A DNA stretch of 64,000 nt from assembly GCA_964384105.1 (NCBI GenBank), contig CAYLJV010000001.1:96001-160000 (forward strand), written 5' to 3'. A program made the position numbers and the translations under genes. Source of the DNA: Candidatus Hadarchaeota archaeon. GTDB taxonomy: Archaea; Hadarchaeota; Hadarchaeia; Hadarchaeales; JAGGTB01. Of this stretch, positions 8,435 through 60,066 are shown piece after piece (the stretch's first letter is position 1; each line of letters starts with the position of its first letter). Below the pieces are notes generated by a model that worked only from the letters and a program-made list of their open reading frames with translations, searched no databases and had not been told where the DNA came from.

Positions 8435-8529
8435 GGGCCCGTAGCTCAGTCCGGATGGAGCGCCTGGCTTCGGTTCCTGATATTGGAGGAGAAACCAGGA
8501 AGTCGGGGGTTCAAATCCCTCCGGGCCCG
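8435..8529 (+). tRNA. tRNA-Arg(TCG) with a 20-nt intron at 37/38 (8474-8493)
   Basis: Acceptor GGGCCCG/CGGGCCC; anticodon stem CCTGG/CCAGG; CT-TCG-G; BHB central helix CTTC/GGAG; TTCAAAT T-loop. Confidence 0.93.
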
Positions 8530-8624
8530 CTTTTATTAAGATTTCTTACCTTCACCCTTTAGGTAGTTCCTTGGTATACTTTGCCGATCACTATTTACCT
8601 ATTTAAATACTCAATAACCTGTTT

Positions 8625-9315: not shown

Positions 9316-9457
9316 GGGGCCATAGTGTAGCCAGGCTAACACAGCAGGCTCCAGCGGAATTAGAATTAAACTTGCTGATGGTCAAGATGATGACCTGCTG
9401 GAGCGAGGATTCTGAAGAAACCTGCGACCCCCGGTTCAAATCCGGGTGGCCCCACCA
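9316..9457 (+). tRNA. tRNA-Trp(CCA) with a 65-nt intron at 37/38 (9355-9419), CCA end encoded
   Basis: Acceptor GGGGCCA/TGGCCCC-A-CCA; anticodon stem GCAGG/CCTGC. The intron contains CTGA, ATGATGA and an antisense TGCTGGAGC. Confidence 0.93.
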
Positions 9458-59791: not shown

Positions 59792-59933
59792 TGCCGGGGG
59801 CGGGACTCGAACCCGCGACCTCGCGATTTCCCACATCATCTCGTGGATCAGCACTCACAACCGAGATTAAGAGGCTATGAGTCGCGCGCTACTAACCACC
59901 TGAGCTATCGGGTCCAGTTAAGGATACCCCGGC
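59792..59933 (-). tRNA. Elongator tRNA-Met(CAT) with two introns: 8/9 (59907-59925, 19 nt) and 37/38 (59828-59875, 48 nt)
   Basis: Removing both introns gives GCCGGGG-TA-GCTCAG...CGCGA-CTCATAA-TCGCG-AGGTC-GCGGG-TTCGAGT-CCCGC-CCCCGGC-A. Both junctions form BHB motifs. Confidence 0.9.
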
Positions 59934-60066
59934 TCAGCCCCGGCACATTTGTTTACTATTGGCGTCTCTCTTAAAAGATGCTTTTGTTGTACGATCTTAA
60001 AGTTTCTAAAAGAATGATGATAGTAGTTTTGAATCATTAGATTTGCTTTTTTGGATAAGGATTTTC

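Follow-up and report, generated by a model that had tools for sequence, protein, structure and literature searches.

A conserved C/D box-like element in the elongator tRNA-Met intron of Hadarchaeota with a putative guide for C34 of its own precursor

The main finding of this study is that the canonical intron within the gene for elongator tRNA-Met in a Candidatus Hadarchaeota genome carries a guide-like stretch and C/D box-like motifs, and that the guide is complementary to the anticodon loop of the very precursor in which it lies. On the comparative sequence evidence this feature is real, conserved and functional, and it can be regarded as a variant of the tRNA-Trp-type self-guiding intron, set in tRNA-Met. 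The reading that best accounts for the observations, and that we consider fairly probable, is that the intron is a C/D RNA with a single guide and a single K-motif, which would act on its own pre-tRNA to give Cm34 and would then refold for splicing.

The elongator tRNA-Met gene and the layout of its intron

The gene lies in a window of 64,000 nucleotides, which is the whole stretch of DNA that was analysed, from a genome of 1.62 Mb in 12 contigs (Table 1). Besides the window's gene this genome holds two further CAU tRNAs, one of them an initiator (A1-U72, GGG/CCC anticodon stem) with a 57-nt intron and the other Ile2-like, with arms nearly identical to those of tRNA-Ile(GAU), which leaves elongator tRNA-Met as the identity of the gene in the window. 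It has the acceptor stem GCCGGGG/CCCCGGC, the anticodon stem CGCGA/UCGCG and the discriminator base A at 59792, its larger intron follows A37 (59876) at the canonical 37/38 site, and its neighbours, TauE, ribose-5-phosphate isomerase and triosephosphate isomerase, are ordinary. The gene was overlooked by ARAGORN and by Rfam at the gathering score, and in E-value mode it reaches 26.3 bits with the Rfam tRNA model, below the cut-off of 29 because a second, non-canonical intron is present. The two helices of this smaller intron pair 59935-59932 with 59905-59902 and 59931-59928 with 59912-59909, the outer helix taking in two bases of the leader. Relatives have tRNA-Met orthologues without this 5' intron, which was missing from all 29 compared, four of the same genus included, and it looks like a recent gain. 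The 5' leader of the gene (59927-59944, minus strand) duplicates the acceptor strand, in the form GCCGGGG-CUGA-GCCGGGG.

Several observations concern other tRNA genes of the genome. By eye, the 57-nt intron of the initiator tRNA-Met (G000:C8:35433-35567, minus strand, outside the window) shows no CTGA, no TGATGA and no C/D boxes. The gene at G000:C1:336773-336911 (plus strand, outside the window) is called Ala(ggc) by ARAGORN, and by eye it is Asn(GUU) with a 64-nt intron containing GGAUGAAG. At 8435-8530 of the window (plus strand) the ARAGORN call depends on the setting: it is tRNA-Arg(tcg) when introns are not looked for, and tRNA-SeC(tca), with an intron of 20 nt, when they are.

Table 1. 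Positions of the tRNA-Met gene, its introns and the elements of the canonical intron within the window
Feature	Positions	Strand	Remarks
Elongator tRNA-Met(CAU) gene	59792..59933	minus	Read from sequence; carries two introns
Second, non-canonical 19-nt intron, tRNA position 8/9	59907..59925	minus	From the fold and manual re-pairing of the outer helix; complete bulge-helix-bulge
Anticodon: C34 (59879), A35, U36	59877..59879	minus	C34 is the proposed 2'-O-methylation target, with N+5 geometry
Canonical 37/38 intron, 48 nt, GCCTCTTAATCTCGGTTGTGAGTGCTGATCCACGAGATGATGTGGGAA	59875->59828	minus	Read from sequence
First three intron bases G, C, C	59873..59875	minus	Pair and covary with the 5' end of the guide
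Guide GGUUGUGAGU	59853..59862	minus	10 bp with A31-A37 and the first three intron bases of the pre-tRNA
Box D-like CUGA	59848..59851	minus	1 base (G, 59852) 3' of the guide duplex
Helix P3, strand x (UCCAC)	59843..59847	minus	Pairs with GUGGG at 59834-59830
8-nt spacer UCCACGAG, proposed K-loop	59840..59847	minus	Between CUGA and AUGAUG
Box C-like AUGAUGU	59833..59839	minus	6/7 matches to RUGAUGA
UGGG	59830..59833	minus	Pairs with C32-A35 to form the central bulge-helix-bulge helix

In RNA letters the order within the canonical intron is CGGUUGUGAGU-G-CUGA-UCCACGAG-AUGAUG-UGGGAA, and rereading of the sequence bore out the layout CGGTTGTGAGT-G-CTGA-TCCACGAG-ATGATG that an earlier, sequence-only reading of this DNA had given. 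The consensus boxes of archaeal C/D guides are CUGA for box D and RUGAUGA for box C; here box D is exact and box C is imperfect (AUGAUGU). The 10-bp guide duplex takes up positions 2-11 upstream of CUGA, with C34 at position 5, and the earlier statement that C34 pairs with the fifth base 5' of CUGA (G at 59856), as the N+5 rule demands, is upheld and extends to the relatives, in which this geometry is conserved. On the 3' side UGGG is followed by the bulge AA (59829-59828) and then by A38. The description of a minimal single-guide RNA also agrees with the sequence, the 48-nt intron having one C34 guide, one CTGA and one TGATG; it has no second guide for position 39, and after box C there is only UGGGAA. 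Canonical archaeal C/D sRNAs have two K-motifs, C/D and C'/D', and because the C'/D' motif (the second K-motif) is absent from these 48 nt, the tRNA-Met intron is not a canonical C/D sRNA.

The guide had further been described as enclosed by a stem of ATCTCG (59867-59862) and CGAGAT (59843-59838). The two strands are indeed complementary, but the enclosing stem is not conserved and is at chance level across relatives: in 36 Hadarchaeota-type introns its mean best helix is 3.19 bp, against 3.06 bp in cross-paired and 3.30 bp in shuffled sequences, and it was rejected as a conserved feature. As for the chance level of the guide and boxes themselves, 21 of 200,000 shuffled versions of the intron had a 7-bp guide putting C34 at N+5 of CTGA, and none of the 200,000 combined a guide and N+5 CTGA with RTGATG 3-12 nt downstream.

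Conservation in Hadarchaeota and homologues in DPANN archaea

Conservation of the guide and boxes in relatives, which had been proposed as a check, was examined with a covariance model built from 30 sequences, and the element proved to be kept in 53 of 66 genomes of the phylum; among the high-quality genomes of phylum Hadarchaeota the model matches 22 of 26. Two groups were free of the element by the same model, namely one family (0/3 genomes) and the only genome of a second order (0/1). BLAST against 41 related genomes found the intron-bearing gene in most of them, with 76-94% identity across the intron. The length of the orthologous introns is 37-58 nt, with 46 nt the commonest value. CUGA, UGAGU and AUGAU are invariant in all 30 aligned sequences, and the guide duplex is always 1 nt away from CUGA in the 30 BLAST-retrieved sequences. 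Of 47 distinct introns, 35 have a gap of 8 nt between CUGA and AUGAU; this set was partly retrieved by a pattern fixing UGAGU-N-CUGA, and it is the BLAST and model sets that tell how constant the spacing is. Public genomes were also scanned with a pattern, which gave 95 stretches, 80 of them listed. Among the 80 matches listed, 40 are titled Hadarchaeota or Hadesarchaea and 2 more are of that type under other titles, 15 are longer tRNA-Met introns of the DPANN type, and 23, most of them bacterial, are without tRNA context. In the element-free family the elongator tRNA-Met is intronless in the 2 genomes checked of 3, and pattern searches of all 3 genomes found neither such a motif nor a stand-alone guide; the element is therefore dispensable there, or has been replaced.

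The DPANN homologues keep C34 at N+5 and the 1-nt distance from guide to CUGA, and in 3 of 12 introns the pair between nt 31 and the 3' base of the guide has changed from A-U to G-C. In all 12 a stem of 2-4 bp stands directly after CUGA and directly before N-AUGAU, and it covaries, with 10 different stem sequences among the 12 introns; a thirteenth row of this comparison was a bacterial chance match without the stem and was left out of the 12. As read from these alignments, a stem so placed between CUGA and AUGAU has K-turn geometry. The Hadarchaeota introns have instead a loop, usually of 8 nt, between CUGA and AUGAUG, which may act as a K-loop. Among 401 Nanoarchaeota genomes sampled there were 18 pattern matches, against 1 in the reversed control, and one genome of this sample (G129, ~0.5 Mb) has a 66-nt tRNA-Met intron with a six-GC hairpin and the same guide and N+5 geometry.

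A separate observation concerns the 3' part of the intron in the DPANN loci L047, L057, L067, L068, L082, L098, L100 and L104. There it complements exon 1 (e.g. GGCGCUC), the complement being the 3' strand of the D-stem, nt 26 and nt 27-28, and CUGA or CUGG comes next. In these longer DPANN introns the 3' complement could act either as a second guide or as a helper pairing.

Competing folds and the partner of the guide

Apart from the guide, the intron contains another partner of the anticodon loop. C32-A35 can pair with a UGGG or UGAG that stands two bases ahead of the 3' splice site, and 98.2% of the cells are paired. Pairing with UGGG yields a 4-bp helix with two 3-nt bulges, which is a bulge-helix-bulge; the bulges, read from sequence, are U36 A37 G and A A A38, and the distal helix is weak. 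The UGGG-C32-A35 helix and the guide hairpin are mutually exclusive. For a 65-nt anticodon arm the guide fold is the minimum-free-energy structure at -21.4 kcal/mol, against -17.3 kcal/mol for the best splicing-competent fold. A further helix, P3, joins the five bases that follow CUGA to the five that follow AUGAU, with 90.3% of cells paired. Two of its pairs show double changes and its score was reached by 0 of 500 shuffles; over the 47 introns its mean best helix is 4.0 bp, compared with 3.33 bp in cross-paired and 3.15 bp in shuffled sequences. P3 would set box C in a hairpin loop and would cross the K-loop pairing, and because this moderately supported helix competes with the K-loop, we are less confident in the simple C/D reading. 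We infer that P3 may be part of a switch in which GUGGG is parked on an anticodon-like decoy as long as the guide holds the anticodon.

Such folds bring up the alternative that the intron is a structural or regulatory switch without methylation, its hairpin masking the anticodon and timing splicing, with CUGA and AUGAU forming an L7Ae K-turn that acts as chaperone or stabiliser, or with P3 as the true structure. In favour of this alternative, the anticodon loop has two conserved pairings that exclude each other, P3 covaries, a second K-motif is lacking, and L7Ae is described as binding K-turns in RNAs besides C/D guides (PMC4245976). A mere switch, however, does not require that CUGA and AUGAU be invariant, nor does it need the fixed 1-nt distance between guide and CUGA, seen in 30/30 BLAST sequences and in the DPANN introns, that sets C34 at N+5. 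We regard a switch without methylation as unlikely.

The question of which RNA the guide pairs with bears on the reading of the intron as a guide for its own precursor. The sequence-only reading had placed the target in the spliced tRNA, across the ligated junction. Direct reading agrees that CGGUUGUGAGU is complementary over 11 nt, with two G-U pairs, to ACUCAUAAUCG (A31-G41 of the spliced tRNA). It is true that this 11-mer arises only after ligation, but in the unspliced RNA a 10-bp partner of equal quality is available, ACUCAUA plus GCC. The two candidate pairings were compared on a MAFFT alignment. With A31-A37 and the first three intron bases as partner, 99.6% of 284 cells are paired, 3 pairs of this precursor hairpin show compensatory changes, the covariation score was reached by 0 of 500 shuffles, and RNAalifold predicts the guide hairpin independently. 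The pair types are GC14 AU10 GU4 CG1 for the first intron base and CG19 UA3 GC1 for the third. Among the 47 distinct introns of the Hadarchaeota type, pairing is seen at the first intron base in 47, at the second in 46 and at the third in 42, with thirteen combinations among them; the third base fails to pair in five, mostly the shortest introns, in which it appears to sit in the loop.

Pairing of the guide with 38-41, in contrast, is found in 62% of cells and shows no covariation, and in 500 shuffles the observed values were reached 371-469 times. Of 29 distinct relatives, 15 have A38 unpaired, and position 41 is unpaired in 19 of 25; in the 47 introns A38, U39, C40 and N41 pair with the guide in 29, 45, 35 and 8, respectively. 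The claim of a target across the ligated junction was thus not sustained, and by covariation it is the unspliced precursor that the guide has as its conserved target. In this genus the guide also fits the junction, but as a by-product of GGU pairing with AUC as well as with GCC. It is quite improbable that an excised, perhaps circular intron acting in trans on the spliced tRNA, across the junction A31-G41, is what the guide serves. The 11-bp pairing exists in this genome, where the excised intron could also pair with spliced tRNA, and 5 of the 47 introns, though only these and mostly of this genus, pair fully with 38-41; moreover, the tRNA-Met and tRNA-Trp introns of Halobacterium salinarum are described as circularised and the tRNA-Trp intron RNP as acting in trans. 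Against this stand the absence of covariation with 38-41 and the fact that changes in the 5' part of the guide go along with those in the first bases of the intron. That the real target is another RNA (rRNA or another tRNA), the complementarity to the anticodon being the usual intron-anticodon pairing, is very improbable indeed, for although tRNA introns commonly pair with the anticodon loop and a suspected Met sRNA in relatives turned out to fit tRNA-Leu(CAA), the guide covaries with the first bases of its own intron, and the splicing motif already has UGGG as anticodon partner, so that the guide is a second, extra complement.

The methylation machinery is encoded in this genome, with fibrillarin (PF01269, 314 bits) and Nop5 (PF01798, 244 bits) in adjacent genes and L7Ae at 94 bits (PF01248). 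A separate tRNA-Met guide sRNA, which had been named as a finding that would speak against self-guiding, was sought in this genome by patterns and none was found: loose and strict patterns for a stand-alone Met guide stayed at chance level, with 33 loose matches against ~49 expected by our own arithmetic. A strict regular expression for canonical double-guide sRNAs gave only 4 candidates in the genome, as pattern matches alone. One sRNA of a relative (G018:C3:11657-11747, minus strand; L170/L177) was considered as a Met guide and rejected, having two mismatches to Met and an exact fit to C34 of tRNA-Leu(CAA). This C/D sRNA is a canonical one with two guides, and GAUNUUGAGUU-CUGA, its D guide, sets C34 of tRNA-Leu(CAA) at N+5; homologues occur in G012, G014, G029 and G033, and none was found in the window's genome.

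Relation to known guides and biological meaning

The guides of tRNA-Trp introns have two K-motifs, and one-motif 'half-mers' methylate less efficiently in vitro. The single K-motif of the tRNA-Met intron thus speaks against the C/D reading, as do its imperfect box C and the loss or absence of the element in the intronless family. It has been recognised for some time that the tRNA-Trp introns of Euryarchaeota guide Cm34 and Um39 (Clouet d'Orval 2001; Singh 2004). They resemble the tRNA-Met intron in lying at the canonical 37/38 site and in setting C34 of their own tRNA at N+5, and also in that the guide pairs with the precursor and the guide fold alternates with the splicing fold. The tRNA-Trp intron of this genome shares a CUGA-8 nt-AUGAUGA core with the Met intron; the sequence-only reading had noted this common spacing, and it was recovered as CTGA TGGTCAAG ATGATGA. 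The two differ in that Trp introns are reported to be ~65-105 nt long with two guides (34 and 39), whereas the Met introns, at 37-58 nt, have one guide and one K-motif.

The tRNA-Trp gene of the window deserves a description of its own. It lies at 9316-9457 (plus strand), with the intron at ~9355-9419 in the order guide-CUGA-8 nt-AUGAUGA-guide. Box C is followed by 12 nt (CCUGCUGGAGCG) that pair with nt 31-37 and the first intron bases, but the next 4 nt do not make up a conserved D' box. The first guide of this intron is GYGGGUCUG-CUGA in most relatives, where it sets position 39 at N+5; this genome has AAUUAAACUUG in its place, and the position-39 guide seems to have been lost from it. The textbook order of a C/D sRNA is C-D'-C'-D, relative to which the order in the tRNA-Trp intron looks circularly permuted.

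Cm34 of archaeal elongator tRNA-Met is known and C/D-guided, and separate guide sRNAs have been described for it, sR-tMet in Haloferax volcanii (Joardar 2011) and a guide in Pyrococcus. These have the same target as the one proposed here, C34 of elongator tRNA-Met, but they are stand-alone genes for trans-acting sRNAs, whereas in Hadarchaeota the guide would be the intron itself. sR-tMet is said to pair with both exon and intron of the precursor, and in this it is like the guide of the Hadarchaeota intron. In Hadesarchaea a variant of the endonuclease has been linked to many disrupted tRNA genes. A 66-nt elongator tRNA-Met intron of Nanoarchaeum equitans has been described as a stable C/D box-like RNA (Randau 2012, PMC3491384). 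It concerns the same tRNA and the same intron site, with box D and an imperfect box C, and the G129 intron has the features that this report describes, 66 nt and a six-GC hairpin; the Hadarchaeota form is shorter and is without the GC hairpin, the K-turn stem and the 3' extension. The main text of the report gives no target, the words wobble, C34 and anticodon having 0 occurrences each. Our literature search for a self-guiding tRNA-Met intron found Randau 2012 alone, and this report, as its main text stands, is the only precedent for the tRNA-Met element, and one that comes without a target. The tRNA-Trp intron figures in reviews of 2014 and 2024 as the one, or 'unique', case of an intron that guides modification of its own tRNA; in the text of the 2024 review it is the sole example, and tRNAMet has 0 occurrences.

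If the intron is indeed a single-guide C/D RNA for its own precursor, GGUUGUGAGU would first pair with A31-A37 and the first three intron bases in the pre-tRNA, the step for which covariation was found. CUGA and the AUGAUG 8 nt further on would then form a K-loop that binds L7Ae, as the covarying K-turn stem of the DPANN homologues suggests, and Nop5-fibrillarin would methylate the 2'-OH of the C34 paired to the fifth guide base. Last, in what is the probable order, UGGG would re-pair with C32-A35, a pairing seen across the relatives, and give the bulge-helix-bulge for the endonuclease. Once excised, and possibly in circular form, the intron may act on further precursors as well. A more far-reaching version, which we advance tentatively and at somewhat less than even confidence, is that no C/D guide in nature would be smaller than this intron of 37-48 nt with a single K-motif and a single guide, acting in cis in the pre-tRNA as a two-state switch, guide-anticodon plus P3 in one state and UGGG-anticodon in the other, that would force methylation of C34 before splicing, and that it is ancient, common to Hadarchaeota and DPANN archaea. 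If this version is true, it would explain the retention of the elongator tRNA-Met intron, and C/D RNPs with a single K-turn would then be functional in vivo, probably with two precursors joined into a dimer through Nop5.

In summary, the element would represent a second class of self-guiding intron, in tRNA-Met, that is phylum-wide and reaches DPANN archaea. An intron of 37-48 nt may offer a very small natural substrate for the study of C/D RNPs with one K-motif, and would allow the ordering of methylation and splicing by RNA refolding to be studied. For the organisms that carry it, the element would give a functional reason for the persistence of the tRNA-Met intron.
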